Virus record (IMG/VR): IMGVR_UViG_3300045988_046105
Span: 1-29,037 of that record
Origin: a virus
Taxonomy: Duplodnaviria; Heunggongvirae; Uroviricota; Caudoviricetes
Strand: one strand, 5' to 3'
Length of the DNA: 29,037 nt
Part shown: positions 410-20,876 of the stretch, piece by piece
Layout of the letters: the number at the start of each line of letters is the position of its first letter
Position numbering within the stretch: the first letter of the stretch is position 1
Translations under genes and position numbers: made by a program
Notes under the pieces: model-generated
What the model was told of the DNA's origin: nothing
Seen by the model: the letters and a program-made list of their open reading frames with translations, nothing else
Databases searched by the model: none

Positions 410-740
410 ATCCCCCGCAGAACGCAAAGCCGCGCAGCGCGCTCGGCAGTCCGCCGCCGGTGAGCGCAAAATTGAACTGGTGCTGGATAAGCAGGAGCAG
501 GAAATGCTGGCGCGGAACTGCGCCGCCCGGCGCCCTGGTCGCGATCCCTATGAAATGGTCGAGTACATCGCGCTGCTGATCCGCCAGGATGATGCACGTG
601 TGCGCGGGCGTATAAAATCGATCAGCAGAAAACTTTGCGGTAAGTGCGGCGAGAGAGTTCCCGTTAATTCATGCCCGTGTAATGGTGACTCGCAATGCTG
701 GGTGACTAAAGGCTGGCATGAAACGAAATTAATAGTGTGA
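402..740 (+). CDS. hypothetical phage protein with C-terminal Cys cluster (possible metal-binding)
   Basis: ORF 393..740; GTG at 402 has GGAG 8 nt upstream. Basic N-terminus, C-terminal CGKCG...CPC...C motif. Stop TGA 738-740 lies inside the GTGACATGTCAC palindrome. Confidence 0.5.
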   Translation: MAKSPAERKAAQRARQSAAGERKIELVLDKQEQEMLARNCAARRPGRDPYEMVEYIALLIRQDDARVRGRIKSISRKLCGKCGERVPVNSCPCNGDSQCWVTKGWHETKLIV

Positions 741-748
741 CATGTCAC
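737..748. repeat. exact palindrome GTGACATGTCAC, copy 1 (14-mer TGTGACATGTCACG)
   Basis: Read directly; overlaps stop codon of 402..740 and lies in the 17-bp gap before the next gene. Confidence 0.9.
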
Positions 749-757
749 GAAGGTGTT

Positions 758-970
758 ATGCCAAAAATACGCTACGACCTTGAAGATATGAGAGATAACT
801 CAGCAAATTTTCCGAAAGAGGTTAAATTTCTCATGCATAAGTATGGTTGCGCCAGGATGGATATAGTTATCGACAGTCAGCACCCTTGCGGCGAGGATGT
901 AATTTTCATTCGCGGTAAATGGGAAGGGTATCTTGACGAGAGTTTTTACGATGAATTTGATGGACTTTGA
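758..970 (+). CDS. hypothetical protein (70 aa)
   Basis: In-frame ATG 758 with AAGGTG SD 4 nt upstream; the track's 737 start is a GTG lying inside the palindrome. No recognisable domain. Confidence 0.45.
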   Translation: MPKIRYDLEDMRDNSANFPKEVKFLMHKYGCARMDIVIDSQHPCGEDVIFIRGKWEGYLDESFYDEFDGL

Positions 971-1011
971 ATACTGCCGCCAACTATGGCGGCTTTATTT
1001 TGCATGGTACT

Positions 1012-1028
1012 ATTACCACAACGGTAAC
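1012..1028. promoter_or_regulatory. operator-like palindrome ATTACC-ACAAC-GGTAAC (site S0) within an 11-bp direct repeat ACTATTACCAC x2 (1009-1019, 1027-1037)
   Basis: Read directly; matches the ATTACC-N5-GGTAAT motif found at five other sites. Lies 17 bp upstream of the terminase small subunit ATG. Confidence 0.35.
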
Positions 1029-1044
1029 TATTACCACGGTGGTT

Positions 1045-1641
1045 ATGATGCCTGCTGAACCTAAAACCTATAAACGCAAATCAACGCAATTTAAGCCACT
1101 AACAGCAATGCAGGAGGCTTATTGCCAGTCATACATCAAAACGCCTGAAAACCAGACTCAGGCAGCGATTAATGCAGGATTCTCCCCAAATACAGCGGCA
1201 GTTAAAGCCAGTGTCATGATGCGCGATGAACGCATTCAAAAACGGATTGCCGAGTTGATGGAGGAGCGCAACAAACGAATGCGCGTCAGTGCTGATTACG
1301 TTCTCATGCGCCTGGTGGAGATCGACCAGATGGACGTGATCGACATCCTCAACGACGATGGGAGCCTTAAGCCAATCCGCGAGTGGCCGAAAATCTGGCG
1401 CACTACGCTTAGCGGCTTTGATCTGTCATCGACCATCATGAACATGAACGAGGATTCGATAGAGACAATCCTCAAAAAAATTAAATGGCCTGACAAGGTG
1501 AAGAACCTCGAACTGATTGGTAAGCACGTCGACGTCAACGCATTCAAAGAACGCCTGGATGTTAATGTGAATGTGACAATTGCTGATCGCATAGCAGCAG
1601 CCAGGAAGCGACTCAAAGAACGTCAGGATGGTAATCAGTGA
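1045..1641 (+). CDS. terminase small subunit
   Basis: ORF 967..1641 (TTG start); a more plausible start is the ATG-ATG pair at 1045. Sequence ...AAINAGFSPNTAAVKASVMMRDERIQKRIAEL... is typical of phage small terminase families (recollection). Stop overlaps the large-subunit start. Confidence 0.7.
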   Translation: MMPAEPKTYKRKSTQFKPLTAMQEAYCQSYIKTPENQTQAAINAGFSPNTAAVKASVMMRDERIQKRIAELMEERNKRMRVSADYVLMRLVEIDQMDVIDILNDDGSLKPIREWPKIWRTTLSGFDLSSTIMNMNEDSIETILKKIKWPDKVKNLELIGKHVDVNAFKERLDVNVNVTIADRIAAARKRLKERQDGNQ

Positions 1642-3113
1642 CAGATACAGTGTTATCTCCTGAAGAGCAGTTGATCGAGGATATTGCAGGGTTCACTCAC
1701 GATCCGCTTGGCTATGCCCTCTATGCGTTCCCGTGGGGGGAAGAGGGGACTGAACTGGCACATGCTACCGGTCCACGTCAGTGGCAGGCCGATGCGTTCC
1801 GAGAGATACGTGATCACCTGCAGAATCCAGAGACGCGTTATCAGCCGCTTATGCTGGCACGTGCTTCTGGTCACGGTATTGGTAAATCCGCATTCATCTC
1901 AATGCTCATCAACTGGGGCATGTCCACTTGCGAGGATTGTAAGGTCGTGGTGACCGCCAACACCGACAACCAGCTACGAACGAAGACCTGGCCGGAAATT
2001 ATCAAGTGGTCGAACCTTGCTATCACGAAAGACTGGTTTACCTGTACCGCTACCGCGATGTACAGCAATGACCCTGGGCACGACAAGCGGTGGCGGGCTG
2101 ATGCAATACCCTGGTCTGAGCACAACACTGAGGCATTCGCCGGACTACACAACGAGCGCAAACGCATCATCGTGGTATTCGATGAAGCGTCGAACATTGC
2201 GGATCTGGTGTGGGAAGTTGCTGAGGGTGCGCTTACGGACGAAGACACTGAGATTATCTGGGTGGCGTTCGGAAACCCTACACGTAATACCGGGCGTTTT
2301 CGCGAATGTTTCCGCAAATACAAACACCGCTGGAAAACTGCGCAGATTGACAGCCGGACGGTGGAAGGTACTAACAAACAGCAGTTGCAGAAATGGGTTG
2401 ATGACTACGGGGAAGACAGCGACTTCGTTAAAATCCGTGTGCGCGGCATATTCCCTGATGCATCTGAATTGCAGTTTATCCCTACCGGTCTTACTGATGA
2501 GGCCATGAAACGGGTGGTAACCGCTGCGCAGGTTGCACATGCTCCGGTGATAATCGGCGTTGACCCGGCATACTCCGGAGTTGATGACGCTGTGATATAC
2601 CTGCGGCAGGGGCTACACAGTAAGGTGCTGTGGACTGGCAACAAGACTACCGACGATCTGATTATGGCGAAGCGTATCGCTGACTTTGAAGACCAGTATC
2701 AGGCTGACGCGGTGTTCATCGACTTCGGTTACGGAACCGGTTTGAAGTCAATCGGTGACGGCTGGGGGCGTACATGGCAACTTGTTCCGTTCGGTGGCGC
2801 GTCTACTGACCCGCAGATGCTCAACAAGCGTGGGGAGATGTTCAATTCATGCAAGACATGGCTGAGGCTTGGCGGCATGCTGGATGACCAGGAAACAGCA
2901 GACGACCTGTCGGCGGCAGAGTACAAAGTTCGAGTGGACGGTAAAATCGTTATCGAACCGAAGGAAGATATCAAGGAGCGGCTTGGGCGTTCGCCTGGTA
3001 AAGGCGATGCGCTACTGCTGACGTTTGCTTTCCCGGTGTCAAAGCGCCTGCGAATTCCCGGGCAGCAGAACCAGCAAGGCAAGGCCATTACAGATTACGA
3101 TCCCTATGCTTAA
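1638..3113 (+). CDS. terminase large subunit
   Basis: 491 aa; Walker A-like GHGIGKS, acidic ...VVFDEAS..., position and size. GTG start overlapping the upstream stop (GTGA). Confidence 0.9.
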   Translation: MTDTVLSPEEQLIEDIAGFTHDPLGYALYAFPWGEEGTELAHATGPRQWQADAFREIRDHLQNPETRYQPLMLARASGHGIGKSAFISMLINWGMSTCEDCKVVVTANTDNQLRTKTWPEIIKWSNLAITKDWFTCTATAMYSNDPGHDKRWRADAIPWSEHNTEAFAGLHNERKRIIVVFDEASNIADLVWEVAEGALTDEDTEIIWVAFGNPTRNTGRFRECFRKYKHRWKTAQIDSRTVEGTNKQQLQKWVDDYGEDSDFVKIRVRGIFPDASELQFIPTGLTDEAMKRVVTAAQVAHAPVIIGVDPAYSGVDDAVIYLRQGLHSKVLWTGNKTTDDLIMAKRIADFEDQYQADAVFIDFGYGTGLKSIGDGWGRTWQLVPFGGASTDPQMLNKRGEMFNSCKTWLRLGGMLDDQETADDLSAAEYKVRVDGKIVIEPKEDIKERLGRSPGKGDALLLTFAFPVSKRLRIPGQQNQQGKAITDYDPYA

Positions 3114-3159
3114 TCCGTTAGCGGGGATAATGACGGAGATATCCTCTGGTGAGGATAAA

Positions 3160-3190
3160 ACAAAGCCAGCTCATCGGCTGGCTGTTTGTG
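3160..3190. terminator. bidirectional intrinsic terminator between convergent terminase and accessory gene
   Basis: Hairpin AGCCAGC-TCATCG-GCTGGCT (3164-3183), A-tract upstream and GTTTGT downstream on + strand. Confidence 0.5.
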
Positions 3191-3199
3191 ACATGTCAC
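3188..3199. repeat. exact palindrome GTGACATGTCAC, copy 2 (14-mer TGTGACATGTCACG)
   Basis: Read directly; 4 bp downstream of the stop of minus-strand gene 3204..3575. Confidence 0.9.
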
Positions 3200-3203
3200 G
3201 GTG

Positions 3204-3575
3204 TTATTGCTCGCTTAACTTCTGCTTCAGCAAGTAACCTTCAAGCATCCAGATTTTGTTTACAGCATTCTGCCGGGCAATCTTCCGACCAATTCCCGCA
3301 TCAAAGTTTTCCGGGCTTGCACAGGCGCTCTCTCCGGTGACGGTGAAGCCGTTGCGCAGCACCAGAACGCAGAACGTCAGCAGAGAAAGTGATTCGTGCG
3401 GCTGGTAGTTTACCTCTCCGCCAGTATGTTTCGCTTTTATGGCTACGCCAAAGACACCATCTTCTGCTGTGAAATATGCCTCCTGAGCAATAATGCTCTC
3501 GATATGGTCTGGCGTAACGCGCGGCGCGGCTAAACCTTTAGCCTGAATTTCAGATTCAATGTCTTTGTCACTCAT
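3204..3575 (-). CDS. conserved small phage protein of unknown function (123 aa); family not confidently identified
   Basis: Strong SD AAGGTGAG 8 nt before ATG; motif ...LLTFCVLVLRNGFTVTGESACASPENFDAGIGRKIARQNAVNKIWMLEGY... recalled from many enterobacterial prophage proteins. Opposite strand to all flanking virion genes. Confidence 0.65.
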   Translation of the reverse strand: MSDKDIESEIQAKGLAAPRVTPDHIESIIAQEAYFTAEDGVFGVAIKAKHTGGEVNYQPHESLSLLTFCVLVLRNGFTVTGESACASPENFDAGIGRKIARQNAVNKIWMLEGYLLKQKLSEQ

Positions 3576-3591
3576 AGTCTAATCTCACCTT

Positions 3592-3615
3592 AAAAAAATG
3601 CCCGGCGAACCGGGC
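3592..3615 (-). terminator. terminator-like hairpin plus U7 immediately upstream of the RBS of 3204..3575
   Basis: Minus strand: GCCCGG-UUCG-CCGGGC followed by AUUUUUUUAAGGUGAG; the SD begins right after the U-tract. Confidence 0.4.
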
Positions 3616-3691
3616 GAACTGGAAGCAATGAGTTATGCCTTCCGTGGCTGTACTGGTTTACAGCATGAAGTCATCGCAATGGCGTCCTGCT

Positions 3692-3735
3692 GTAAAAAGG
3701 GCGGTGATAGTCCTTCAAGGGAAACCATCACCGCC
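3692..3735 (-). terminator. hairpin downstream of tRNA-Arg (possible tRNA terminator)
   Basis: 9-bp inverted repeat GGCGGTGAT/ATCACCGCC with 18-nt loop, followed on minus strand by CUUUUUA. Confidence 0.3.
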
Positions 3736-3778
3736 AAGCACCTGGAACTTCTGGCATCACGGTCCTTAGGCGTGATTC

Positions 3779-3855
3779 TGGCGTGGCATGCAGGATTCGA
3801 ACCTGCGACCAACCGCTTAGAAGGCGGTTGCTCTGTCCAACTGAGCTAATGCCAC
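3779..3855 (-). tRNA. tRNA-Arg (anticodon UCU), 77 nt, CCA encoded
   Basis: Hand-folded reverse complement GTGGCATTAGCTCAGTTGGACAGAGCAACCGCCTTCTAAGCGGTTGGTCGCAGGTTCGAATCCTGCATGCCACGCCA: 7-bp acceptor, 4-bp D stem, 5-bp anticodon stem, loop CUUCUAA, 5-bp T stem with TTCGAAT loop. Confidence 0.9.
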
Positions 3856-4176
3856 AACGCTGAGAGCACTTAGCCTGTTAAGGCGCCACACTTTGTCGCG
3901 GCTCCATAAATGCTCTCATCGTTGTACCCTCGTCTCTTCCGAGGCGTCACACCGAATCGCCGGGATGGTGAATCCCCGTGCGCGGAATAAAACCGCTCGA
4001 CTTGCACATTCCGGCTACCTGGTTCGTTTGCCCGAGCAAGGGAGGGTGCCCCTTAAACGTATCCAGACCGCTATCGTCGCATGTGCCATACGCCGTACTG
4101 CTCAAAATAAAAGCTCACTCCACCTGTTCAATTTAACGACAAGCCAGTCAGGTTAATAACCGGAATGAACTATTTA

Positions 4177-4193
4177 CTTACCTGAAGGGTAAT
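4177..4193. promoter_or_regulatory. operator-like palindrome CTTACC-TGAAG-GGTAAT (site S6) upstream of the portal operon
   Basis: Read directly; sits in the ~420-bp non-coding region 3856-4282 about 90 bp upstream of the first structural-operon ATG. Confidence 0.4.
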
Positions 4194-4282
4194 AATTCGT
4201 GCATTAAATGTCAACTATCTACGATAAATAAATCATATGTGGTTAAATTGGTAATAATTTAATTGCGTACGGAGTCATTGAT

Positions 4283-4489
4283 ATGTGCATGGGTAGCTCA
4301 CCATCAGTGCCTGCAACACCAGAAGTTCAGGCAGCACCACAGGAGCAGGATGCCGCCGTTGTTGATGCCCGCGACGAAGAAACACGTCGCCGTCGCGCTG
4401 CTGCTGGTCGTAGTTCTACGCTGCTTACCGGTTCTCAGGGCGACACATCAACCGCTAATACCAGCGGTAAAACGCTGCTTGGTCAGTAA
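4283..4489 (+). CDS. small hypothetical protein (68 aa)
   Basis: ATG with GGAG SD; RBS context GGAGTCATTGA-ATG is duplicated almost exactly at the portal start (4491-4506). No recognisable domain. Confidence 0.45.
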   Translation: MCMGSSPSVPATPEVQAAPQEQDAAVVDARDEETRRRRAAAGRSSTLLTGSQGDTSTANTSGKTLLGQ

Positions 4490-4503
4490 CCGGAGTCATT
4501 GAA

Positions 4504-6183
4504 ATGGCGGAAACAACTAAAGAGCGATTGAACAAACAGTTCGCACAACTTGAAAGCGAGCGTCAGTCGTTCGAGCCGCACTGGCGCGAGTTGAGTGATT
4601 ACATCAACCCGCGTGGTTCCCGCTTTCTGACTTCTGAGGTCAACCGTAACGATCGACGCAATACACGCATTATTGATTCGACCGGGACTATGGCGGCGCG
4701 CACTCTCGCCAGCGGCATGATGTCAGGCATCACAAGCCCCGCCCGTCCGTGGTTTCGCCTGGCTACGCCAGATCCTGAAATGATGGATTATGGCCCTGTT
4801 AAGTTGTGGCTTGAGGCGGTGCAGAACCGCATGAACGATATGTTCAATAAGTCGAATCTCTACCAGTCTCTTCCGCAGTTATACGGAAGCCTCGGCACAT
4901 ACAGCACTGGTGCAATGGCGGTGCTGGAGGATGACGAGGACATCATTCGCACAATGCCATTCCCTATAGGCAGTTACTACCTGGCTAACTCACCTCGTGG
5001 CAGTGTGGACACCTGTTTCCGCAAGTTCTCTATGACTGTTCGTCAGCTTGTTCAGGAGTTCGGGCTAAATAACGTCAGCGAATCCGTAAAAAGCATGTGG
5101 GAAAGCGGCACCTACGAGAAGTGGATTGAAGTGATGCATTCGGTTTACCCGAACATTGACCGCGATACATCGAAGCTGGATAGCAAGAACAAGCCATTCA
5201 AATCGGTTTATTACGAGGTTGGTGGCGATAACGACAAGTTGTTGCGTGAGTCCGGATTCGATGAGTTTCCAATTATGGCTCCGCGCTGGGAAGTTAACGG
5301 CGAAGATGTTTATGGATCATCATGCCCGGGTATGCTGGCGCTTGGACCTGTTAAGGCATTGCAGCTTCTCCAGAAGCGCAAGTCGCAGTTGATTGATAAA
5401 GCCACCAATCCGCCGATGGTTGCTCCGACTTCCCTCAAGAATCAGCGCGCCTCCCTTCTTCCTGGCGACATCACGTATATCGATCAGATTACTGGTCAGG
5501 ATGGCTTCAGGCCTGCTTATCTGGTTAACCCCAGTACAGCAGATTTGGTGGCAGACATTCAGGACACCCGTCAAATCATTAACAGCGCCTACTTTGTCGA
5601 TCTGTTCATGATGTTGCAGAACATCAATACCCGCTCGATGCCTGTTGAAGCGGTAATCGAAATGAAAGAAGAAAAACTTCTGATGTTGGGGCCGGTTCTG
5701 GAGCGTCTGAACGACGAATGTCTTAATCCTCTCATTGACCGCGCTTTCTCGATGATGGTGCGTAAAAACATGCTGCCGCCACCGCCTGACGCGATGGAAG
5801 GCATGCCCCTGAAGGTCGAATACATTTCCGTCATGGCTCAGGCGCAGAAGTCTATCGGCCTGTCCAGTCTGGCGTCCACGGTTAACTTCATTGGTCAACT
5901 TGCGCAAGCGAAACCAGAAGCTCTCGACAAACTCAACGTTGATCAGGCGATCGATGCATTCGCTGATATGTCCGGAGTGTCTCCAACCGTCATTGTTCCG
6001 CAGGAACAGGTTGAGCAGGCTCGCCAGCAACGGGCACAGCAGCAACAGCAGCAACAAATGATGGCGATGGGGATGGCGGCGGCACAGGGTGTCAAGACGC
6101 TAAGTGAAGCTAAAACTTCGGATCCGAGTGTGTTGTCAGCTATGGCGAATGCAGTTAGTGGTCAGGGTGGGCAATCACAATGA
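4504..6183 (+). CDS. portal (head-to-tail connector) protein, T7 gp8-like
   Basis: 559 aa; overall pattern and Q/M-rich C-terminus (QQQQQQQMMAMGMAAAQG) resemble T7 gp8 as recalled; position after terminase. Confidence 0.85.
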   Translation: MAETTKERLNKQFAQLESERQSFEPHWRELSDYINPRGSRFLTSEVNRNDRRNTRIIDSTGTMAARTLASGMMSGITSPARPWFRLATPDPEMMDYGPVKLWLEAVQNRMNDMFNKSNLYQSLPQLYGSLGTYSTGAMAVLEDDEDIIRTMPFPIGSYYLANSPRGSVDTCFRKFSMTVRQLVQEFGLNNVSESVKSMWESGTYEKWIEVMHSVYPNIDRDTSKLDSKNKPFKSVYYEVGGDNDKLLRESGFDEFPIMAPRWEVNGEDVYGSSCPGMLALGPVKALQLLQKRKSQLIDKATNPPMVAPTSLKNQRASLLPGDITYIDQITGQDGFRPAYLVNPSTADLVADIQDTRQIINSAYFVDLFMMLQNINTRSMPVEAVIEMKEEKLLMLGPVLERLNDECLNPLIDRAFSMMVRKNMLPPPPDAMEGMPLKVEYISVMAQAQKSIGLSSLASTVNFIGQLAQAKPEALDKLNVDQAIDAFADMSGVSPTVIVPQEQVEQARQQRAQQQQQQQMMAMGMAAAQGVKTLSEAKTSDPSVLSAMANAVSGQGGQSQ

Positions 6184-6476
6184 CAGATTACGAAGACGAT
6201 CAACTGAAAGAAGAAAACGCCCGTAAGCAACGTGACATGGCACAGCGTGAAATTGATGACATTCGCTTTGTCATGAGCAGTGAACAGGGGCGTCGCGTTG
6301 TCTGGTCGGTGCTGGAGAAAGGCCGTGTGTTTTCCGCTATCTCTCCGATGGATGCTATGGCAATGGCATTTAATGAGGGGCAACGCAATCTGGCGCTGGA
6401 ACTGTTTCAGCGCGTTATGGCGCATTGCCCTGAACAGTATTTGAAGATGGCCAAAGAGGCCAGTGAACAGGAGTGA
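6180..6476 (+). CDS. hypothetical virion-module protein (98 aa)
   Basis: ATG overlaps portal stop (ATGA); acidic small protein; no family recognised. Confidence 0.5.
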   Translation: MTDYEDDQLKEENARKQRDMAQREIDDIRFVMSSEQGRRVVWSVLEKGRVFSAISPMDAMAMAFNEGQRNLALELFQRVMAHCPEQYLKMAKEASEQE

Positions 6477-6478
6477 TC

Positions 6479-7174: not shown

Positions 7175-7188
7175 GAGAGGAAATAACA

Positions 7189-8175: not shown

Positions 8176-8226
8176 CGCCTGTTATTAACCTGTGGGTCGT
8201 AACAGACCCACTAATGGAGAAAGAAG

Positions 8227-8664: not shown

Positions 8665-8674
8665 GGTGATATCG

Positions 8675-9010
8675 ATGTCAGGTGAGAAACCAAGATACCG
8701 CGTTCTGCGCCTCTCTCATATCCATAACACTCTGTGGCCGGAGGGGGCAGAAATCGAATACGAAGGTGAGCCTGGTAGCGCACTGGAACCTGTTAACGAT
8801 GCAGCCAGACAGGCAAAAGCAAAAGTTGCAGGAAAAGTGTCAATGGCAGCAACCAGCACCAAAATCATCAACGATGTGTCAGATGATGGTGAACTGGATA
8901 AGCTCCGTGAAGAGTACGAATTGCTCTTTAACGAGAAGCCACACCATAACGCCAAAGCCGAAACGCTCCGCGAGAAGATCGCAGATAAGCGTAAAGAACT
9001 GGGCGTGTAA
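8675..9010 (+). CDS. hypothetical protein
   Basis: ATG 8675 with AAGGTGA SD (track start 8666 is GTG); charged C-half; followed by a terminator. Confidence 0.5.
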   Translation: MSGEKPRYRVLRLSHIHNTLWPEGAEIEYEGEPGSALEPVNDAARQAKAKVAGKVSMAATSTKIINDVSDDGELDKLREEYELLFNEKPHHNAKAETLREKIADKRKELGV

Positions 9011-9026
9011 GCCTCGCGGATCAGAC

Positions 9027-9989: not shown

Positions 9990-12460
9990 TGGCTATCAGT
10001 TGGATCCAGCCCAGCTTTGCCGGTGGTGAGATTGGACCGTCGTTGTACGGGCGTATTGACATGGCGAAGTACCAGGTGGCATTGCGCAAGTGCGATAACT
10101 TTATCGTGCGGCAGTATGGCGGCGTTGAGAATCGACCTGGTACGCGTTTTGTCGGTGCCGCCAAATACCCAAATCGGAAATGCCGCCTGATCCCGTTCCA
10201 GTTCTCGACGGTTCAGACCTATGCTCTGGAGTTCGGACACCAGTACATGCGCGTTATCAAAGATGGTGCGTTGGTGCTGAACAGCAGCAATGTTATTTAT
10301 GAAATTGCCACGCCATATACTGAAGCCGATCTGTTCCGAATTAAATTCACGCAAAGCGCCGACGTGCTTACGCTGGTTCATCCGGCATACCCGCCGAAAG
10401 AGTTGCGTCGCTATGCGCATGACAACTGGCAACTGGTTGATGTGGTAACGAAGAACGGGCCATTTGAAGATATCAATATTGACGAGTCAGTGACGGTTTA
10501 TGCCAGCGCCAGCACCGGGACAATTACGTTAACGGCAAGCGCCTCTATTTTTGGCGCGGAGCAGGTAGGCAAATTGTTCTATCTGGAACAGCCTGCAGTG
10601 GATTCTGTGCCGGTATGGGAAACCAGTAAGAGTACGTCGATTGGCGATATTCGCCGTGCAGACAGTAACTACTATCGCGCCGTTACAGCAGGCAAAACAG
10701 GTACTTTGCGCCCTTCGCATACAGAAGGCACATCATGGGATGGCTGGGGCGGATCCGGTGATGATGATACTGGCATTGAGTGGGAATATCTGCACAGTGG
10801 TTTTGGCATTGCCCGTATCACTGCTGCAAATGGAACTACTGCAACTGCCGAGGTGATTTCCTATATCCCTTCGCAGGTAGTTGGCGAGGATAATGCCAGC
10901 TATAAATGGGCTAAATATGCCTGGAACAGTGTTAATGGTTATCCTGGCACTGTTGTTTATTATCAACAACGTCTTTACTTCGCCGCATCGACTGCGTTCC
11001 CTCAGACTATCTGGGCCAGCCGTACCGGGGATTATAAGGATTTTGGCAAAAGCAATCCTACGCAGGATGACGACAGAATTATCTACACCTATGCCGGGCG
11101 TCAGGTTAATGAGATCCGCCACCTGATTGATGTCGGTTCGCTGGTGGCACTGACTTCCGGAGGTGAGTACGTCATCACCGGCTACCAGAACAAAGTATTA
11201 ACCCCATCATCATTTGCATTCAGCTCTCAGGGATCAAATGGCTCGAGCAATGTCCCACCAATTGCCGTGGCGAATATTGCTCTGTTCGTCCAGGAGAAAG
11301 GCAGTGTTGTCCGTGATCTGGCCTACTCATTCGATGTTGACGGCTATCAGGGGAACGACCTTACTATCCTTGCCAATCATCTTTTTCAGAAGCACAGCAT
11401 TGTTGACTGGTGCTTCTCTATTGTCCCTTACTCCAGCGCCTTCTGCATTCGTGATGACGGTAAATTACTGGTGATGACCTATTTGCGTGATCAACAGGTT
11501 TTTGCATGGGCACCACAATCCAGTACCGGAAAATATGAAAGCACATGCAGTATCAGCGAAGGCAATGAAGATGCGGTGTATTTCGTCGTTAACCGAACCG
11601 TTAACGGGCAAACAGTGAGATACATCGAGAGACTGTCCAGCCGTTTATTTACCAGCGATGAAGATGCTTTCTTTGTTGATTCTGGCCTTAGCTATGATGG
11701 AAGAAATACGTCTGACAGAACGATGACCATCACTGGTGGTTCTGGTGAATGGGATTACCGCGCGGAATATACAATCAGTGTTTCTGGTGGTGCGTACTTC
11801 ACCAGTAGTGATGTCGGTGCGCAACTACAGTTCCCTTATGCCGGAACTGATCCTGATACTGGCGATAAAGTGTCAAAAGAATTACGTTGCGACATTATTT
11901 CTGTAACCAGCAATACCGCTGTAGTGGTTCGTGCCAACAGGAACGTCCCGCCATCCCTCAGGAATGCGGCCACCACGAACTGGCAGATGGCGCGCCGGAC
12001 ATTTGGAGGCCTGTCTCATCTTGAAGGCCAGACCGTAAACATTCTCTCTGATGCGAACGTGGAACCACAGAAAGTGGTTTCCGGAGGTGCCGTCACGCTG
12101 GAATCTCCGGGGGCTGTAGTGCACATCGGCCTGCCAATAACTGCTGAATTCGAAACACTGGATGTCAACATTAACGGACAGGAAACGCTGCTGGACAAAA
12201 AACAGGTGATCCCCTCCGTTACTCTGGTTGTGAATGCCAGTCGCGGCATCTGGGCGACTACGCCCGGCGGTAAATGGTACGAATATCCACAGCGTGAATT
12301 CGAGTTCTACGATGATCCTGTTGATGATGCTACCGGAAAAGTAGAAGTGAAACTGGACAGTAACTGGGGCAAAAACGGACGTGTAAAAATCCGTCAGCTT
12401 GATCCGTTGCCGCTGTCTGTTCTTGCCGTTATTCCTCGCCTTACTGTTGGGGGATTCTGA
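9989..12460 (+). CDS. tail tubular protein B-like (nozzle, T7 gp12-like)
   Basis: 823 aa, size and position after gp11-like gene; start overlaps upstream stop (TGATG). Confidence 0.6.
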   Translation: MAISWIQPSFAGGEIGPSLYGRIDMAKYQVALRKCDNFIVRQYGGVENRPGTRFVGAAKYPNRKCRLIPFQFSTVQTYALEFGHQYMRVIKDGALVLNSSNVIYEIATPYTEADLFRIKFTQSADVLTLVHPAYPPKELRRYAHDNWQLVDVVTKNGPFEDINIDESVTVYASASTGTITLTASASIFGAEQVGKLFYLEQPAVDSVPVWETSKSTSIGDIRRADSNYYRAVTAGKTGTLRPSHTEGTSWDGWGGSGDDDTGIEWEYLHSGFGIARITAANGTTATAEVISYIPSQVVGEDNASYKWAKYAWNSVNGYPGTVVYYQQRLYFAASTAFPQTIWASRTGDYKDFGKSNPTQDDDRIIYTYAGRQVNEIRHLIDVGSLVALTSGGEYVITGYQNKVLTPSSFAFSSQGSNGSSNVPPIAVANIALFVQEKGSVVRDLAYSFDVDGYQGNDLTILANHLFQKHSIVDWCFSIVPYSSAFCIRDDGKLLVMTYLRDQQVFAWAPQSSTGKYESTCSISEGNEDAVYFVVNRTVNGQTVRYIERLSSRLFTSDEDAFFVDSGLSYDGRNTSDRTMTITGGSGEWDYRAEYTISVSGGAYFTSSDVGAQLQFPYAGTDPDTGDKVSKELRCDIISVTSNTAVVVRANRNVPPSLRNAATTNWQMARRTFGGLSHLEGQTVNILSDANVEPQKVVSGGAVTLESPGAVVHIGLPITAEFETLDVNINGQETLLDKKQVIPSVTLVVNASRGIWATTPGGKWYEYPQREFEFYDDPVDDATGKVEVKLDSNWGKNGRVKIRQLDPLPLSVLAVIPRLTVGGF

Positions 12461-13463: not shown

Positions 13464-13475
13464 GGGGATAATAAG

Positions 13476-15989: not shown

Positions 15990-17788
15990 GTTACTTTGGC
16001 CTTAATCCAGTAAACCAGAATCAGCAGCTTGACGAAGCAGCATCAAATCCAGCTGGCTTTAACAGCGATGTTGGTTTTTTCGACAATGCTGTAGGAGCGG
16101 CATTGTCTGGTTTGTACTCCGGGCTGGTGGCAAAGCCAGATCAGTTGCTATGGGCAGGGATGGATAAAATCGTATCCCCGATTGCTCAGTTTGTTAACGA
16201 AAACACCTCGATCAATGACACTTCAGTTTCATACATTGCTGAGCAGAGAAAACTAGCAGAGCAGCAGGTTAAGCGGCTGACGCCTGATGCCGCGACAACC
16301 GGAACCGCCGGGCAGGTCCTTTATGGGTTGTTCGATATGGGCGGGCAGGCTGTTGTCGGTACAACGCTCGGTGGTCCGGTCGGAGGTGCTGCGGCGGTAA
16401 CTTCTCTACAGGGTTTTTCTGAGTTTGAACGGCTTACAGCACAGGGTGTTGATTTCAGGACGGCGCAGGAAGCGGGATTAGTGCAGGGTATTACTGCTGG
16501 TGCCGGAACACTGATCCCTATGAGCCTCGGGTTACGTGCTGGTGGTGCGCTGGCGGAAGGTGTGGCGGCTCAGCTTGCGCGGACGGGTGAAAGTTCAGTG
16601 CGACGCGCCGCAGCAACAGCAGTACGTGCAACGCCAGATATTGCCTATGCCGCAGGTACAAATATTGCGTTCGGTATGGCACAGCGTGGGCTTACTGCAA
16701 AAACGCTTCGTGATGGTGGCTATAGCGAAATGGCTAACCAGTATGATGTGTTGGATCGACAGGCAATTGCTATTGATGCTGTTCTTGGGGTGGCGTTTGG
16801 TGGTGTCGGCAGATTTATTAACTCTCGCGGCGAGTCTACAAGCGCACCAAATTTTTCACCAGTTGATATCGATGCTGCACTGGCGGCGAATGCCGCTCAT
16901 CATGCTGAAATTGATATTGCTCCCGGCGTGCCGATCAACGTGCTTTCGCGTAATTCGCACATTCAGGCTCTGCGAAAAGCCATGTCTGATGTTAGCCAGG
17001 GGAGACCTGTAGACGTTGCCAGCATTGTTGAGTCTGCATCTTTCAGTGAAATTCCTGGACGCAAGAGTCTGCTGTCTCAGGCAGTTAATGAGGCTCTGTC
17101 ATCTGTAGATGATGGAGTAACGGCGCGCGCTATAGAAAATCGGTTGCTTGAAGAACAGGCCGCGCAGCTTTTGCCGCGTGGCGATAGACAGGTTTACCAG
17201 TCTGAAATCGCTAATAGCCAACGAATTATTGAAAATCTCACTGAACAGCGCGCACAAATTCTTGCAGAAGATCCAGCCGGTAGCGGTAAGGCTTTATCTC
17301 GTGCTCGATCAGATAAACAGGCCAGACTTCGCGATATTGACCAACGAATCCGGCAGGCACAAGAACGCCTGGAATTTTCTCGTAACGCGTTGGCACCGCA
17401 TGAGCCTGGCGGTCAGTTTTTTGAAGCTCGAGCAGAACTGGCTCGGAGACAACAGGCAGAAAGTGAACTTAATGCTCAGGCTGTTTCATTCTATAAAACA
17501 GCAGAGGTCAGGACGCCAGACGAAGTATCTCCTTTTGAGCCTGATAAAATATTGCAACAGGCAGAACAAAAAATGATGTCAGATCAGGCAGGAGATATTG
17601 ATTTGCGCATAGCTGAAGACTCGCTGCTTGAATCACCTGACATGATAATCACCGTGCTGGATGATGATGGTAATCCACAATCGCGCAGTGCGCGTGAAGC
17701 ACTGGATGAAGCGAACAGGGAAAGTGAGCAGGCACTACAGGATTCCAGCCTGTTTGATGTCGCTGTGGCGTGTTTCTTGAGAGGTTAA
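15986..17788 (+). CDS. internal virion / ejection protein
   Basis: 600 aa, Ala/Gly-rich with coiled-coil-like C-half; overlaps upstream stop; position in ejection-protein block. Confidence 0.5.
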   Translation: MSYFGLNPVNQNQQLDEAASNPAGFNSDVGFFDNAVGAALSGLYSGLVAKPDQLLWAGMDKIVSPIAQFVNENTSINDTSVSYIAEQRKLAEQQVKRLTPDAATTGTAGQVLYGLFDMGGQAVVGTTLGGPVGGAAAVTSLQGFSEFERLTAQGVDFRTAQEAGLVQGITAGAGTLIPMSLGLRAGGALAEGVAAQLARTGESSVRRAAATAVRATPDIAYAAGTNIAFGMAQRGLTAKTLRDGGYSEMANQYDVLDRQAIAIDAVLGVAFGGVGRFINSRGESTSAPNFSPVDIDAALAANAAHHAEIDIAPGVPINVLSRNSHIQALRKAMSDVSQGRPVDVASIVESASFSEIPGRKSLLSQAVNEALSSVDDGVTARAIENRLLEEQAAQLLPRGDRQVYQSEIANSQRIIENLTEQRAQILAEDPAGSGKALSRARSDKQARLRDIDQRIRQAQERLEFSRNALAPHEPGGQFFEARAELARRQQAESELNAQAVSFYKTAEVRTPDEVSPFEPDKILQQAEQKMMSDQAGDIDLRIAEDSLLESPDMIITVLDDDGNPQSRSAREALDEANRESEQALQDSSLFDVAVACFLRG

Positions 17789-17793
17789 ATTAA

Positions 17794-20268
17794 ATGAGAC
17801 AGGAATGTATACAAGCGGTTCAGCAGGCGGCGCAGCGCATGTTAACGGCGCGAGAAATACAGAACATTGAAGACCGCATTTATCGAAATATGCGCTCCAT
17901 TGCTCGTGATGACCCTATGTCGTGGCGACAACTTTCCGAATCAGAGCGGCTATATCGAGCAGCACAATTGGCATCTGAAGAATTACAGCGAGAAGCGGCA
18001 TTAAAGAAACGTCGTGTGGCTCTCACTATAGCCGCGCGTCAGAGATTGGATAAATTTATCAATAGCTATCAAGGGGCTGATGGGAAACTTGGCGCTCTTA
18101 ACCGTACTATAGCTTTTAATGCAGACGGTAAATCTAATTTCCTCTCTGTTGAATCCAGAACAAAAGCCACCCGTGATTATGCATTGAGTCAATTGCAGGA
18201 GGCATTCGAAGCAGTTGATCCTCGCTTTTTTGGTCTGTTTGAAGATGAAGCGGGCGTACGTGACCTGGTATATGAAATGCGGGGGCAAAATACTGGCAAT
18301 GCTAAAGCAAGAAACGGTGCTAAGGCGTGGAGAGAAGTTACAGAGCTGCTGCGCCGCCGGTTTAATGATGCTGGTGGGGACATTGGCTATCTCGAAAACT
18401 GGGGGATCCCTCAACATCATTCTATGGAAAAGGTTGGGGCAGTATCAAAGGATAAGTGGGTTAGCGATGTTATAGGTAAGCTGGATCGCAAATATTATAT
18501 CCGAGCCGATGGACAACTGATGAACGATGCCGAGTTGTCTTCATTTCTTGGAGAGGCTTATAACACGATCGCTACTGGTGGGCTGAATAAGCTTACTGAT
18601 ACCGGAATGCGAATTTCCGGCGCACGTGCTAACCGTGGTAATGCATCACGACAGATACATTTCAAAGATGCAGATTCCTATCTGCAATATCAGCAACTTT
18701 ATGGCGATCGCTCTCTATGGGAAATCATGGTCGGTCACCTGGAAGGTATCAGTAAAGATATTGCACTGGTGGAAACATATGGCCCAAACCCCGATCATGT
18801 TTTCCGCTCTCTTCTTGATCAGGTGAAGGCAGAAACGGCAACAGCTAACCCGAGTAAAACCGGTAAAGTCGAGCGGCTGGCGAACAACACAGAGAATCTG
18901 TACAACTTTATTTCCGGAAAGACACAGCCTGTAGCGAATCCGCACATCGCGCGATGGTCTGACAATATCCGCAACTGGCTGGTTGCCAGCAGACTCGGAT
19001 CCGCGTTGCTGTCATCGTTCTCTGATCTTGGAACCATGTATCTGTCTGCGAAGGTTACCAACCTTCCAATGAACCAGTTATTCCGCAACCAGCTTGAAGC
19101 TATGGACCCAACGAACCGTACAGAACTTGCGCGGGCTCGCCGCGCTGGTCTGGCGATGGAATCTCTACTTGGCAGCGTTAACCGCTGGGCGATGGATAAT
19201 ATGGGGCCGTCAGTGTCTCGTTGGGCGGCAACGGCGGTAATGCGTGCCAGTGGGCTTACAGCATGGTCAGATGCGCACAAGCGCGCCTATGGCGTAACCA
19301 TGATGGGAAGCCTGGGAGAAGTAGTGTCACGGACACCAGACCTTCGTAGCCTCGATGACTCTGATTTTCGTATCCTGAAAAGCAAAGGGATTACTGACAC
19401 AGACTGGAGCGTATGGAAGCTGGCGAAACAGGAGGACTGGGGGAACGGTAATAATACGATGCTGACACCGGAAAGCATTATGCGTATCCCTGATTCAGCA
19501 GTTAAACATCTTGGTGAGCCTGAACGCGTGAAATTTGAGGCAATGCGTAAACTGCTCGGTGCCGTAACTGAAGAAGTTGATATGGCTGTTATTACACCGG
19601 GAGCACGTGAGCAACTGATAACCGGTTCTGGTATTCAGCGTGGAACATGGAAAGGTGAATTAACGAGAAGTGTTTTCCTGTTTAAATCGTTCCCTATCTC
19701 GGTTGTTATGCGTCACTGGTCACGCGCTATGGGTATGCCGTCTGCTGGTGGGCGTGCGGCATATATTGCGACGTTTATTGCCAGTACGACCATTCTTGGC
19801 GCTTTGTCGCAGCAACTTAACGACCTTGCGTCTGGTCGTAATCCTCGAGAGATGACAGGAGAAGATGCCGCAAAATTCTGGCTTGGTGCTCTACTGAAAG
19901 GTGGTGGTCTTGGCCTTTACGGTGACTTTTTATTGTCAGATCACACTAGGTACGGAAGCGGCGCGCTGGCGTCGATGCTTGGCCCGGTAGCTGGTCTGGT
20001 TGATGACGTAGTGAAGATTGCTCAGGGCATACCGTTAAATGCTGTGGAAGGGAAGAGTGAGCAGACTGGTGGTGATCTGGTGAAGCTGGGGAAAGGTTTG
20101 ATGCCTGGTGCGAATCTCTGGTACTTGAAGGCGGCTCTCGATCACATGATCTTTAACCAGATGCAGGAGTATTTTTCACCAGGCTATTTGCGTAAAATGG
20201 AGCAACGTTCGAAGAAAGAGTTTAACCAGACATACTGGTGGCGACCACAGGATGTCACTCCGCAATAA
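17794..20268 (+). CDS. internal virion protein D-like (gp16 position)
   Basis: 824 aa, SD GAGAGG; last large gene of virion block. Confidence 0.55.
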   Translation: MRQECIQAVQQAAQRMLTAREIQNIEDRIYRNMRSIARDDPMSWRQLSESERLYRAAQLASEELQREAALKKRRVALTIAARQRLDKFINSYQGADGKLGALNRTIAFNADGKSNFLSVESRTKATRDYALSQLQEAFEAVDPRFFGLFEDEAGVRDLVYEMRGQNTGNAKARNGAKAWREVTELLRRRFNDAGGDIGYLENWGIPQHHSMEKVGAVSKDKWVSDVIGKLDRKYYIRADGQLMNDAELSSFLGEAYNTIATGGLNKLTDTGMRISGARANRGNASRQIHFKDADSYLQYQQLYGDRSLWEIMVGHLEGISKDIALVETYGPNPDHVFRSLLDQVKAETATANPSKTGKVERLANNTENLYNFISGKTQPVANPHIARWSDNIRNWLVASRLGSALLSSFSDLGTMYLSAKVTNLPMNQLFRNQLEAMDPTNRTELARARRAGLAMESLLGSVNRWAMDNMGPSVSRWAATAVMRASGLTAWSDAHKRAYGVTMMGSLGEVVSRTPDLRSLDDSDFRILKSKGITDTDWSVWKLAKQEDWGNGNNTMLTPESIMRIPDSAVKHLGEPERVKFEAMRKLLGAVTEEVDMAVITPGAREQLITGSGIQRGTWKGELTRSVFLFKSFPISVVMRHWSRAMGMPSAGGRAAYIATFIASTTILGALSQQLNDLASGRNPREMTGEDAAKFWLGALLKGGGLGLYGDFLLSDHTRYGSGALASMLGPVAGLVDDVVKIAQGIPLNAVEGKSEQTGGDLVKLGKGLMPGANLWYLKAALDHMIFNQMQEYFSPGYLRKMEQRSKKEFNQTYWWRPQDVTPQ

Positions 20269-20487
20269 AAGGAGATATGATAGTTCAAATAACTTTTATT
20301 GTACTAATATGTGCAGCGTTTTTATGCTATTCATACATTTTGATAAAAATGGGTTTCAATTGGAATCTCTGTTGCGTGCAGCGGCATGGTTCGGCTTTGT
20401 AGTATTCGGAATTGTATTGTTCGGAAGAATAATAAAATAACTAGTTAATTTGTGGATTGGTGCTGTTTTTCCATGATAGGGGTAATT

Positions 20488-20868
20488 ATGAGAAAAGTAT
20501 TTTTGATTTTTGGATTTATGCTTCTCGTTGGATGCCAGTCAGCTGCACAGTTTGAAAGAAATATGCTTACGTGGCGCGGGCAGAGTATAGACGCAATGGT
20601 TCAGCAGTGGGGGTATCCTCAGGGAGAGCTTACATCTCCAGATGGAAACAGAGTGTATGTTTACTCAAGCTCTGGTAGTTATAACGTACCACAAACCACA
20701 ACGTATAATACTACGTCTAATCTAATTGGTAATACTATATATTCAAACACATACGCAACAACTGATGGCGGTTATACACTCCATTTCAGTTGCTCTGTTT
20801 ACGTTGAGTTTGGTGCTGATAAGATTATTAAAAATGTTACATGGCGCGGTAATAATTGCGTTGCGTGA
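20488..20868 (+). CDS. lipoprotein (moron; candidate superinfection-exclusion / receptor-masking factor)
   Basis: ATG 20488 with AGGGG SD; signal peptide MRKVFLIFGFMLLVGC with lipobox LVGC; AT-rich gene unlike flanking virion genes; stop inside palindrome copy 3. Confidence 0.6.
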   Translation: MRKVFLIFGFMLLVGCQSAAQFERNMLTWRGQSIDAMVQQWGYPQGELTSPDGNRVYVYSSSGSYNVPQTTTYNTTSNLIGNTIYSNTYATTDGGYTLHFSCSVYVEFGADKIIKNVTWRGNNCVA

Positions 20869-20876
20869 CATGTCAC
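20865..20876. repeat. exact palindrome GTGACATGTCAC, copy 3 (14-mer in inverted orientation, CGTGACATGTCACA)
   Basis: Read directly; overlaps lipoprotein stop codon. Confidence 0.9.

Follow-up and report, generated by a model that had tools for sequence, protein, structure and literature searches.

A conserved palindrome on the stop codon of a small regulator-like gene and beside intrinsic terminators in Uetakevirus-type phages, a candidate operator at transcription-unit ends

Short conserved gene-boundary sequences at which mosaic joints cluster and accessory genes are exchanged are described as module-boundary linkers in lambdoid phages and as PeSL cassettes in T4-type phages; each kind is restricted to a single phage group and consists of promoters, stem-loops or weak homologies. 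Cluster A mycobacteriophages carry stoperators, short repeated regulator sites in intergenic gaps near stop codons and away from promoters, which are thought to affect elongating polymerase. Stoperators are asymmetric and orientation-biased, number 20-35 per genome and are bound by the immunity repressor. In the lambdoid Q system, a small regulator gene whose product has a zinc-binding region ends the early operon and is followed by a DNA site (QBE) and a terminator (tR') before the late genes, QBE lying in or beside a constitutive late promoter. The nut/boxB site of lambda N combines a stable 5-bp stem and a GNRA-like pentaloop with boxA, upstream of the suppressed terminators. Integron attC sites are imperfect palindromic repeats of 57-141 bp with R and L boxes, found immediately behind each cassette gene's stop codon and recombined by IntI. 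The consensus for CRP is TGTGA-N6-TCACA. The MatP site of the E. coli Ter macrodomain, matS, has the 13-bp pattern GTGAC[AG]N[TC]GTCAC, and E. coli and Salmonella prophages have zero matS (PMC3603311). The binding site of SlmA has the consensus GTGAGTACTCAC (PMC3116907).

The stretch of DNA analysed here (29,037 nucleotides, hereafter the window) is a phiV10/epsilon15-like (Uetakevirus) prophage. In the whole window, the 12-bp palindrome GTGACATGTCAC has exact copies at 737-748, 3188-3199 and 20865-20876. The 14-mer TGTGACATGTCACG is common to 736-749 and 3187-3200, and 20864-20877 reads CGTGACATGTCACA, its reverse complement; the shared 14-mer with an inverted third copy, reported in the initial annotation, was thus borne out by reading all three sites. 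Its claim that three exact copies exceed chance also holds, as 4 matches with at most one mismatch to GTGACATGTCAC are present against 0.08 ± 0.31 expected from 100 dinucleotide-preserving shuffles of the window, none of which reached 4. The copies and their surroundings are as follows.

402-740, plus strand: p55-family gene, 112 aa, with ATG at 402 (GTG at 393 in the list of open reading frames); stop TGA inside copy 1.
736-749, no strand: palindrome copy 1 (14-mer TGTGACATGTCACG, core 737-748), overlapping the p55 stop codon.
758-970, plus strand: accessory 70-aa ORF (PHROG 1541), an insertion that separates copy 1 from the terminator.
976-993, plus strand: predicted intrinsic terminator, end of the early-right operon.
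3164-3183, minus strand: intrinsic terminator, strong on the minus strand, common to the converging terL and reverse cargo gene.
3187-3200, no strand: palindrome copy 2 (14-mer; core 3188-3199), an exact 12-mer match.
3204-3575, minus strand: Phage_gp49_66 accessory gene (PF13876, E = 1.5e-34), its 3' end adjoining copy 2.
6232-6243, no strand: near-copy GTGACATGGCAC, 11/12, within the coding ORF 6180-6476, where it encodes ...RDMAQ...
20488-20868, plus strand: lipoprotein-like accessory ORF, 126 aa (lipobox LLVGC, PHROG 3716); TGA stop inside copy 3.
20864-20877, no strand: palindrome copy 3 (14-mer; core 20865-20876), reading CGTGACATGTCACA on the plus strand, with a terminator directly after it.
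20877-20894, plus strand: predicted intrinsic terminator, end of the long late (virion) operon.

Each copy overlaps or adjoins a stop codon, as had been noted initially. The TGA of ORF 393/402-740 (738-740) is contained in copy 1 and that of ORF 20488-20868 (20866-20868) in copy 3, and copy 2 lies 75 nt past the terL stop and 4 nt from the stop (3204-3206) of the reverse gene 3204-3575. On the minus strand, the order at copy 2 is cargo stop, 4 nt, palindrome, 4 nt, terminator. Copies 2 and 3 are at accessory-gene 3' ends, 0-5 nt upstream of intrinsic terminators, and a terminator-like hairpin is found within 0-5 nt in 57 of 103 distinct box contexts versus 8 of 600 random positions. At copy 1, the intervening 70-aa ORF is missing from phiV10 and phiv142-3, where its last 8 codons alone remain. 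The 976-993 terminator is followed by two repressor-operator-like sites (1012-1046) and then by the probable true terS start (~1047), the same terminator, operator and terS arrangement as in the epsilon15 annotation. No sigma-70-like promoter was found on the plus strand at or upstream of copy 1. Two features, the tie to the upstream 112-aa gene and the close terminator adjacency, are absent from the initial annotation.

Two lesser sites listed there are present, one of them displaced, but neither appears to belong with the three copies. The 11/12 near-copy GTGACATGGCAC exists, at 6232-6243 rather than 6233-6244; as it lies in coding sequence and is more degraded in phiv142-3, it is probably chance or coding, and not part of the palindrome system. 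The half-copy GATGTCAC at 20251-20258 falls within the 3'-terminal part of the 824-aa virion gene. Outside the boxes, 3 half-plus-centre 7-mers (ATGTCAC/GTGACAT) are present where ~3.5 are expected, and this half-copy is therefore attributed to chance.

Counted in full genomes and related phages, the motif is position-specific and not random. PhiV10, phiv142-3 and epsilon15 each have exactly three sites in their complete genomes, and Salmonella phage epsilon15 (~76% nucleotide identity) carries the identical 12-mer at the same three syntenic positions. In 92 loci chosen solely by p55 homology (1.45 Mb), GTGAC-NN-GTCAC with its TGA as the p55 stop is found in 87, and a second copy past the terL terminator, 2.2-3.2 kb after p55, in ~62. 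Only 3 other occurrences are present in these loci, and none in the 10 kb upstream. An equivalent of copy 3 is seen in 71 of 80 loci chosen by the virion gene, 157-597 bp past the virion-gene stop. Across relatives, the consensus is Y-GTGAC-NN-GTCAC-R, of which the window has the form TGTGACATGTCACG. One phiv142-3 copy has the centre AC. PhiV10 copy 1 has one half-site mismatch (GTGACATGTTAC), and two of the related loci (L266 and L289) have a one-mismatch copy each; thus, single copies are dispensable. The box remains exact while the flanking coding sequence diverges to ~50% amino-acid identity, and the palindrome is under strong selection.

Physical coupling of the box to the p55 gene extends to phage types that are not related. 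If a p55 box is defined as a GTGAC-NN-GTCAC located at, or overlapping with, a PHROG 536 stop codon, window copy 1 is one. GTGACTGGTCAC lies on the stop codon of N15 gp46 and phiKO2 gp45, and TTGTGACGCGTCACAA on that of the p55 homolog in the P2-like Yersinia phage vB_YenM_201.16. Among Vibrio phages, the box is on the p55-homolog stop codon in 10N.237, 1 nt past it in VPHZ6 and 226 bp downstream of the homolog in K308. All of these homologs share 35-45% identity with p55, and the box also follows p55 homologs that adjoin xis/int instead of terS. At two distant homologs (Yersinia YenM_42.18 and an Aeromonas phage), no box is present. None of the ten half-site positions varies among the phages of Escherichia, Salmonella, Klebsiella, Pantoea, Yersinia and Vibrio, whereas the two centre bases vary (AT, CT, AG, AC, GC, TG); N15 has three copies, every one with the centre TG/CA.

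The p55 protein matches PHROG 536, 'transcriptional regulator' (E = 2e-53), and no Pfam, NCBIfam or PDB relatives were found. It has a basic N-terminal helix (ERKAAQRARQ), which is among its best-conserved segments, a helical core and a Cys-rich C-terminal tail that is a probable zinc-binding region. Its AF2 model, of mediocre confidence (pLDDT 65.6), has three helices and a disordered tail; a Foldseek search with this model found nothing, and it contains no recognisable DNA-binding fold.

Compared with the described systems, the palindrome is not itself an intrinsic terminator, as it is worth -2.7 kcal/mol and has no T-run, the terminators being separate adjacent hairpins. A CRP site is excluded by the 4-bp spacing of TGTGA-CATG-TCAC(A/G). 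The Uetakevirus repressor operator ATTACC-N5-GGTAAT (epsilon15 annotation) is a different motif, and the operator-like sites of the window (1012, 1030, 4177, 21823, 22863, 22956 and 24076) overlap none of the palindromes. The box shares with stoperators its placement near stop codons and away from promoters, but it is palindromic with three copies per genome, its motif is not that of the repressor, the true operators are other sites and the candidate binder is another protein. Copy 1 resembles the Q/QBE/tR' arrangement in its order of small regulator gene, site and terminator; however, no promoter accompanies the box, and two of the three boxes are at operon ends rather than starts. N15 has its own, separate Q gene alongside its p55 homolog, and the P2-like phage has a gene at the Ogr position that we take, from its annotation, to be its regulator; therefore, p55 is not the general late-gene switch. 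In contrast to the lambdoid linkers and PeSL cassettes, the box is a single 12-bp palindrome that recurs, together with one linked protein family, across podo-, sipho- and myoviruses.

From these comparisons, and with slightly less than even confidence, we read the box as a conserved cis-acting DNA site, a candidate target of a p55 dimer, that would modulate transcription-unit ends. The initial annotation had offered four roles without choosing among them, and these are supported in part: a regulator binding site fares best, given its physical coupling to a single small regulator-like gene in phage families that are not related, while a nuclease or methylase target is without support. Invariant half-sites around a variable centre are read as the signature of a dimer site. 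A dimer of p55, which is encoded directly upstream of copy 1, would bind the box, and when bound there, just behind a polymerase reading the terminator, it might shift stopping versus read-through at unit boundaries. Its role could be that of an insulator or roadblock, or of a local antiterminator, the direction of the effect being pure conjecture. Against a role for p55, the half-sites stay constant while the protein falls to 35% identity, so that a host factor could be the binder. It is also unusual for a regulator to have its site at the 3' end of the gene that encodes it. In the literature searched, no paper contains the palindrome sequence.

The palindrome could instead act as RNA, its transcribed hairpin, 5' of a terminator or by the next ribosome-binding site, being read by the Arg-rich N-terminus of p55 to control termination or translation, as with lambda N/boxB or Mu Com. 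All copies are in transcribed 3' regions between stop codon and terminator, a position that also fits the RNA 3' processing signal suggested initially, and the p55 N-terminus is helical and rich in Arg, Lys and Gln. On one strand, the conserved T...G flanks would extend the stem by a U-G pair, and a Shine-Dalgarno sequence and ATG lie 1-10 nt past the box at the window's 70-aa ORF, at N15 gene 47 and at three related loci (L009, L016 and L088). However, the hairpin reaches just -2.7 kcal/mol and does not persist in the minimum-energy fold when copies 1 and 3 are folded with their surroundings, and compensatory stem changes are absent from E. coli to Vibrio phages, which weakens the processing signal as well. 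All ten half-site bases are invariant instead, consistent with duplex DNA being read in a base-specific manner. Relative to transcription, the T...G flanks point one way at copy 1 and the opposite way at copies 2 and 3, and the asymmetric centre of N15 occurs in both orientations. The stem of 4 bp with a CNNG loop differs from boxB, no boxA was noticed in passing, and there is no Rfam match. An RNA element is thus considered unlikely.

We give a similarly low probability to a recombination or insertion hotspot, at which a nuclease, a recombinase or RecET-type annealing at the palindrome would shuffle cassettes between phages and slots. The copies do lie at the edges of accessory insertions, as first claimed, in comparison with phiV10, phiv142-3 and ~250 related loci, and similarity breaks exactly at the box: ungapped identity over 80 nt to its left/right is 0.99/0.36 for copy 1 versus phiV10 and 0.35/0.99 for copy 3 versus phiv142-3. 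Many unrelated cargo genes adjoin the box, with at least 10 flank clusters at copy 1 and ~17 at copy 2; by our reading, the latter represent ~10 unrelated cargo families, in which the stop codon is mostly at a fixed 4 nt from the box (GGCG-TTA). Cargo at copy 3 falls into at least 4 size classes. The slots at copies 1 and 2 both contain remnants of one 70-aa gene family (...EFDG[LF]*), inverted at copy 2, and these phages encode RecE/RecT-like proteins. However, cassettes of relatives are bounded by the motif at one edge only: the opposite edges, a virion-gene stop and the 3' end of the 70-aa ORF remnant, are box-free, leaving a single box per variable slot, and half-copies such as that at 20251 are no commoner than chance. 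The box has no consistently linked recombinase gene, and none travels with it; the only integrase is of the P4 prophage type and lies far away in the phiV10 and epsilon15 annotations. Although it follows stop codons as attC does, the box has a 12-bp core, one per slot, and no cassette integrase. It is equally conserved without an insertion, and in N15, P2-like and Vibrio phages it overlaps the p55 stop irrespective of the downstream sequence. Moreover, any conserved functional element beside a variable region must mark a limit of similarity. Thus, the breakpoints and their at least 10-17 unrelated flank classes are real, and the mosaic joints are more likely a by-product than the primary function.

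A site for a host protein, a MatP- or SlmA-like reader of GTGA...TCAC or another conserved Enterobacterales-Vibrionales factor with p55 linkage being indirect, is rather improbable. Escherichia, Salmonella, Klebsiella, Pantoea, Yersinia and Vibrio all carry MatP, and the half-sites are invariant across their phages. They are identical to those of matS, which is likewise palindromic, confined to the same host group and present in few copies per replicon. However, all copies and the variants in relatives are 12 bp with a 2-bp centre, not the 3-bp centre of matS, which rules this site out; matS is moreover absent from E. coli and Salmonella prophages (PMC3603311), whereas the box is tied to a phage gene and to terminators. 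The SlmA site GTGAGTACTCAC is likewise a 12-bp palindrome with outer GTGA...TCAC, but it is ruled out by positions 5-8, which are CATG in the box and not GTAC, the inner four bases differing symmetrically. SlmA sites are scattered on the chromosome outside Ter, and nothing ties the phage site to cell division. In phages that are otherwise unrelated, the box accompanies the p55 gene down to the very stop codon, and p55 is without detectable similarity to MatP (hhalign probability 0.1% against a provisional MatP sequence). A chance repeat or functionless passenger, suggested by short length alone, is refuted by exact conservation against diverging flanks and by recurrence in different virus families, and is scarcely credible.

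Under the p55-operator reading, palindrome and terminator would form a ~40-bp block that must be kept and is common to diverged phages. This block may double as a fixed edge for accessory-gene exchange, probably also providing a short arm of homology, which would explain why similarity breaks exactly at the palindrome. It is possible, though doubtful, that the PHROG 536 zinc-finger-like protein and GTGAC-NN-GTCAC are a new protein-site pair of podo-, sipho- and myoviruses of enterobacteria and vibrios, bounding transcription units at intrinsic terminators and serving as a dock for moron exchange. If so, the linker sequences long postulated for modular phage evolution would gain a molecular basis in this pair.

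The window shares about 97% identity with phiv142-3 and phiV10, both from Escherichia, and about 76% with epsilon15 from Salmonella, and is therefore regarded as a Uetakevirus-type temperate podovirus or prophage. Its layout was drawn from homology to the phiV10 and epsilon15 annotations, family scans, and terminator and operator scans. The palindrome, or box, is the 12-mer GTGACATGTCAC, with the general form GTGAC-NN-GTCAC (two half-sites and a two-base centre); L-numbers below denote compared loci.

Layout of the window around the three palindrome copies
402-740 (+): last gene of the early-right operon, encoding the 112-aa protein p55 (phiV10p55 / epsilon15 gp49), by homology
737-748: palindrome copy 1, overlapping the p55 stop codon
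758-970: accessory ORF of 70 aa, after copy 1
976-993: terminator downstream of the 70-aa ORF
1012-1046: two repressor-operator-like sites, from the operator scan
to 3113: terS and terL, terL ending at 3113, by homology
3164-3183: terminator after terL
3188-3199: palindrome copy 2, between the 3164-3183 terminator and the reverse accessory gene
3204-3575 (reverse): accessory gene of the Phage_gp49_66 family, from the family scan
3779-3855 (-): tRNA-Arg, anticodon tct, in the variable slot that separates terL from the portal gene
4177: operator-like site, from the operator scan
to 20268: genes from portal to 824-aa virion protein, by homology
20488-20868: lipoprotein-like ORF, one of two small accessory ORFs before copy 3
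20865-20876: palindrome copy 3, overlapping the stop of the lipoprotein-like ORF
20877-20894: terminator after copy 3

Two terminator-like hairpins follow the tRNA-Arg on its own strand (3735-3700 and 3615-3600). The terS gene of phiV10 is annotated with a TTG start (L001 41, equivalent to window 967) and that of phiv142-3 with an ATG; as a terS beginning at the TTG would contain an intrinsic terminator and two operator-like sites, the true start is probably the ATG at about 1047-1050. G+C content falls from about 0.50 to 0.36-0.45 over 20000-27000, which covers the accessory and tail-fibre genes and the region downstream, a drop that would fit recent acquisition of host-range and conversion genes.

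The exact 12-mer occurs three times in the window, and a single further match is gained when one mismatch is allowed (6232-6243, GTGACATGGCAC), giving four in total. In 100 dinucleotide-preserving shuffles searched with the same tolerance, the mean was 0.08 +/- 0.31 matches and never as many as four were seen, upholding the claim of the initial annotation that three exact copies, at these same coordinates, exceed chance. The 14-mer it described is also found, as TGTGACATGTCACG at copies 1 and 2 and as the reverse complement at copy 3. Its 11/12 near-copy exists, one base away from the position first reported (6233-6244), and lies within coding sequence (ORF 6180-6476, ...RDMAQ...). A half-copy that it singled out at 20251-20258 is present too, at no more than chance frequency, the window having three extra half-plus-centre 7-mers against about 3.5 expected. 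Contact with stop codons was likewise recovered: the TGA of the box is itself the stop at copies 1 and 3, and the stop of the reverse gene is 4 nt from copy 2. Along the transcript ending there, the order at every copy is stop codon, palindrome, terminator.

In epsilon15, the exact 12-mer is found at three syntenic places (39612, 2142 and 19517) and nowhere else, and is unmarked in an unusually detailed annotation that gives repressor, IHF, RNase III and integrase sites. phiV10 and phiv142-3 have three sites each; copy 1 of phiV10, which spans the ends of the linear record, carries one half-site mismatch (GTGACATGTTAC), and one phiv142-3 copy has the centre AC. Two samples were drawn independently of the motif. 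The first, selected by p55 homology, comprised 12 prophages from ten genera and 80 IMG/VR contigs (92 loci, 1.45 Mb). GTGAC-NN-GTCAC provides the p55 stop with its own TGA in 87 of these 92 loci, and a second copy lies 2.2-3.2 kb downstream, past the terL terminator, in about 62; there are only three other occurrences, and none in the 10 kb upstream across the 92 loci. The second sample was selected by the C-terminus of the virion protein, and here the box lies 157-597 bp past the virion-gene stop in 71 of 80 loci, with at least four cargo size classes and degenerate one-mismatch boxes in a few loci. The ten half-site bases are invariant in the sampled copies, the flanks are mostly T...G, and the central two bases vary (AT by far the commonest, then CT, AG, AC, GC and GT). 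One centre is used throughout N15 (TG, three times), epsilon15 and the window (AT, three times each), and centres are mixed in L124, L128, L209, L213 and phiv142-3. A concerted centre, considered as a sign of a specific reader, thus fails in several genomes, and the centre is probably not read.

Some other IMG/VR matches to the 14-mer appear, from their flanks, to be in-frame coding sequence in several groups (CGT GAC ATG TCA CA, RDMSQ/H). High-GC viral contigs matching the 14-mer carry GTGAC/GTCACG arrays (L068 ~1890-1960, L020 ~10770-10860, L106 ~10810-10890, L049 and L039) within ORFs that, judged by their N-terminal sequences alone, resemble phage replication organisers (DUF1376-like). These arrays probably represent origin iterons lying within an initiator gene, with no relation to the enterobacterial box. 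Neither the 12-mer nor its variants were found in a phage context in the literature searched, and the accessible part of the phage ZX5 paper does not treat the palindrome. The palindrome is real, with no earlier description in the material searched.

Homologs of p55 with 35-45% identity are found in quite different phages, with the same half-sites in the same place.

Box at p55 homologs in other phages
N15 gp46 (siphovirus, linear plasmid prophage): GTGACTGGTCAC, on the stop codon
phiKO2 gp45 (N15-like telomere phage): GTGACTGGTCAC, on the stop codon
vB_YenM_201.16 (P2-like, Yersinia): TTGTGACGCGTCACAA, on the stop codon
10N.237 (Vibrio): GTGACAGGTCAC, on the stop codon
VPHZ6 (Vibrio): GTGACAGGTCAC, 1 nt past the stop
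K308 (Vibrio): GTGACACGTCAC, 226 bp downstream

The box is absent at two p55 homologs, those of Yersinia YenM_42.18 and an Aeromonas phage. Where IMG/VR elements have xis/int instead of terS after the p55 homolog, it is still on the p55 stop codon. N15 (L219) has three GTGACTGGTCAC copies (28550, 33237 and 39269, one as reverse complement), all with centre TG/CA: one on the gp46 stop, one within repA and one between gene 33 and a terminator; none is marked in the N15 annotation. Per gene, ten fixed bases have a probability of about 1e-5 of falling by chance so close to a particular stop codon (a few bases), and the repeated co-occurrence in independent lineages shows that gene and site belong together.

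In p55, a basic N-terminal segment (AERKAAQRARQ) is followed by a helical core and then by a tail rich in Cys (CGKCG...CPC...C). The protein falls in PHROG 536 ('transcriptional regulator') and matches no Pfam, NCBIfam or PDB entry; its AlphaFold model has three helices and a disordered tail (pLDDT 65.6), with which Foldseek found nothing below E = 3.8. A Pfam scan of 13 diverse members and 10 longer relatives gave no informative domain, and apparent fusions look like gene-calling artefacts. The family is small, forming 185 clusters at 50% identity in a set of 1.84 billion proteins, and is common in E. coli, with 659 of 5,426 complete genomes (~12%) carrying it, as 'hypothetical protein' in the examples listed. 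A general role as a Q- or Ogr-type late activator is rejected, since N15 carries Q, and the P2-like Yersinia phage what we take from its annotation to be an Ogr-position regulator gene, each in addition to a p55 homolog. Given the linkage, the dimer-like architecture of the site and the conservation of the basic helix, p55 is the most parsimonious candidate binder, and on these sequence features the box may well be a DNA site for p55, although this assignment is tentative.

Terminators were examined at 103 distinct box contexts from the motif-independent samples, with 600 random positions in the same loci as control. A terminator-like hairpin starts 0-5 nt from the box in 57 contexts and 6-40 nt from it in 18 more, as against 8 of 600 control positions with a hairpin within 0-5 nt. 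The T-run of adjoining hairpins points away from the box every time. This spacing places the box about 30-40 bp behind the transcript release point, and a role in termination or read-through is proposed on that ground. A protein on the duplex box could touch the upstream face of the terminating polymerase, and the box would then modulate termination or read-through at three unit ends, those of the early-right operon, the leftward accessory unit and the late virion operon. Such an effect, in either direction, is offered as a hypothesis only. A promoter scan found none at any of the three window copies. A late promoter with the box as -35 (GTGACA with TAAATT 17 nt downstream, by eye) fits epsilon15 only, and not phiV10, the window or the other flank classes.

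The box might instead act as RNA, in the manner of N/boxB or Com, which its position and the Arg-rich N-terminus of p55 would fit. However, the RNA hairpin is weak (-2.7 kcal/mol) and not robust in context, compensatory stem changes were not seen across the compared copies, and the asymmetric flanks and the N15 centre give an orientation that is inconsistent relative to transcription, making an RNA element unlikely. The palindrome matched no Rfam family.

The initial annotation had also listed a recombination or insertion hotspot for morons among its options. The box is indeed the exact limit of similarity to relatives: when the 80 nt on either side of it are compared without gaps, the left/right identity at copy 1 is 0.99/0.36 to phiV10 and phiv142-3, and that at copy 3 is 0.35/0.99 to phiv142-3. 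In slot 1, the variable region adjoining copy 1, the p55 side is kept and the opposite side falls into at least 10 unrelated classes, among them the 70-aa ORF as well as morons in which a umuD-like gene is accompanied by a LexA-box promoter. In slot 2, beside copy 2, the terminator side is kept and the opposite side forms about 17 clusters; judged by their 3' ends, these appear to represent about 10 unrelated gene families; this cargo is mostly reverse-oriented genes with the stop codon fixed 4 nt from the box. The suspected pattern is therefore genuine. However, each slot has one box only, no recombinase co-occurs with it, and it is equally kept without insertions and in phages with other neighbours. 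Recombination as the primary function is accordingly improbable, and the joints are read as a by-product. The retained block of about 40 bp (box and terminator) would fix the slot edge, and could act as a short homology arm for RecET-type systems, which these phages encode according to annotation.

Two further observations concern slot contents. In the slot after box 1, Citrobacter and Pseudocitrobacter prophages (L123 4345-4430, L125 4351-4440) have a promoter in which CTGT-N8-ACAG resembles a LexA box, together with a gene whose product begins MGFPSPAADY; this looks like a umuD-like moron under SOS control. A mini-ORF, M[HK][DY]EFD[GR]F*, lies by box 1 in phiV10 (L001 1-45) and, inverted, by box 2 in epsilon15 (L122 ~2158-2185) and phiv142-3 (L002 ~24270-24300). 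It matches the C-terminus (...YDEFDGL*) of the 70-aa ORF (window 940-970), and seems to be what remains of that gene family in two separate slots.

Among known sites, matS (GTGAC[AG]N[TC]GTCAC, 13 bp; PMC3603311) has half-sites identical to those of the box, whose centre is one base shorter, so that the box is one base-pair deletion from matS. The SlmA site (GTGAGTACTCAC; PMC3116907) has the same length and the same outer four bases on each side, whereas the inner four differ. A host-factor site, for MatP or SlmA among others, is considered quite improbable. As matS is absent from E. coli and Salmonella prophages (PMC3603311), a near-matS kept under selection is notable. p55 shows no similarity to MatP (ribbon-helix-helix; hhalign probability 0.1% with a MatP sequence, and an empty PDB profile search). 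When the criteria of each were compared, the box was not a CRP site, nut/boxB element, QBE, attC site or stoperator.

Nor is it the prophage repressor operator, as the sites annotated as repressor binding sites in epsilon15, and eight in the window, are ATTACC-N5-GGTAAT. With up to two mismatches this motif has 8 window matches against 0.89 expected (1012-1028, 1030-1046, 4177-4193, 21823-21839, 22863-22879, 22956-22972 and 24076-24092, the eighth being a two-mismatch site at 27267). Operator-like sites stand where the terS, portal and tail-fibre units begin, and thus the prophage repressor may repress the late operons directly. Rfam C4 antisense RNA (78.6 bits) and isrK (74.7 bits) match 22645-22827 (-), directly upstream of a Bro-N antirepressor-like gene (21904-22641, -), which suggests control of the antirepressor by a small RNA, P1/P7/N15-style.

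The box is best classed, on present sequence comparisons, as a putative operator-like palindrome that would bind a protein; its location is unusual and its candidate binder uncharacterised. Its position at stop codons, a few bases before terminator hairpins, suggests control at the ends of transcription units and not at promoters; few phage systems are known to act there. If p55 binds the box, a widespread 'hypothetical' E. coli protein would gain a function and a defined, testable target. The likeness to matS points to a possible link with host chromosome organisation, and makes it fair to ask whether the DNA organisers of phage and host interact or deliberately keep apart. The same block is also the exact edge of three hypervariable slots, a concrete example for the modular evolution of phages. 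The slots hold lipoproteins and a tRNA, and those of relatives also umuD-like genes under SOS regulation; with them, the way in which conserved boundary sequences channel the transfer of accessory and virulence genes from phage to phage can be tested directly.
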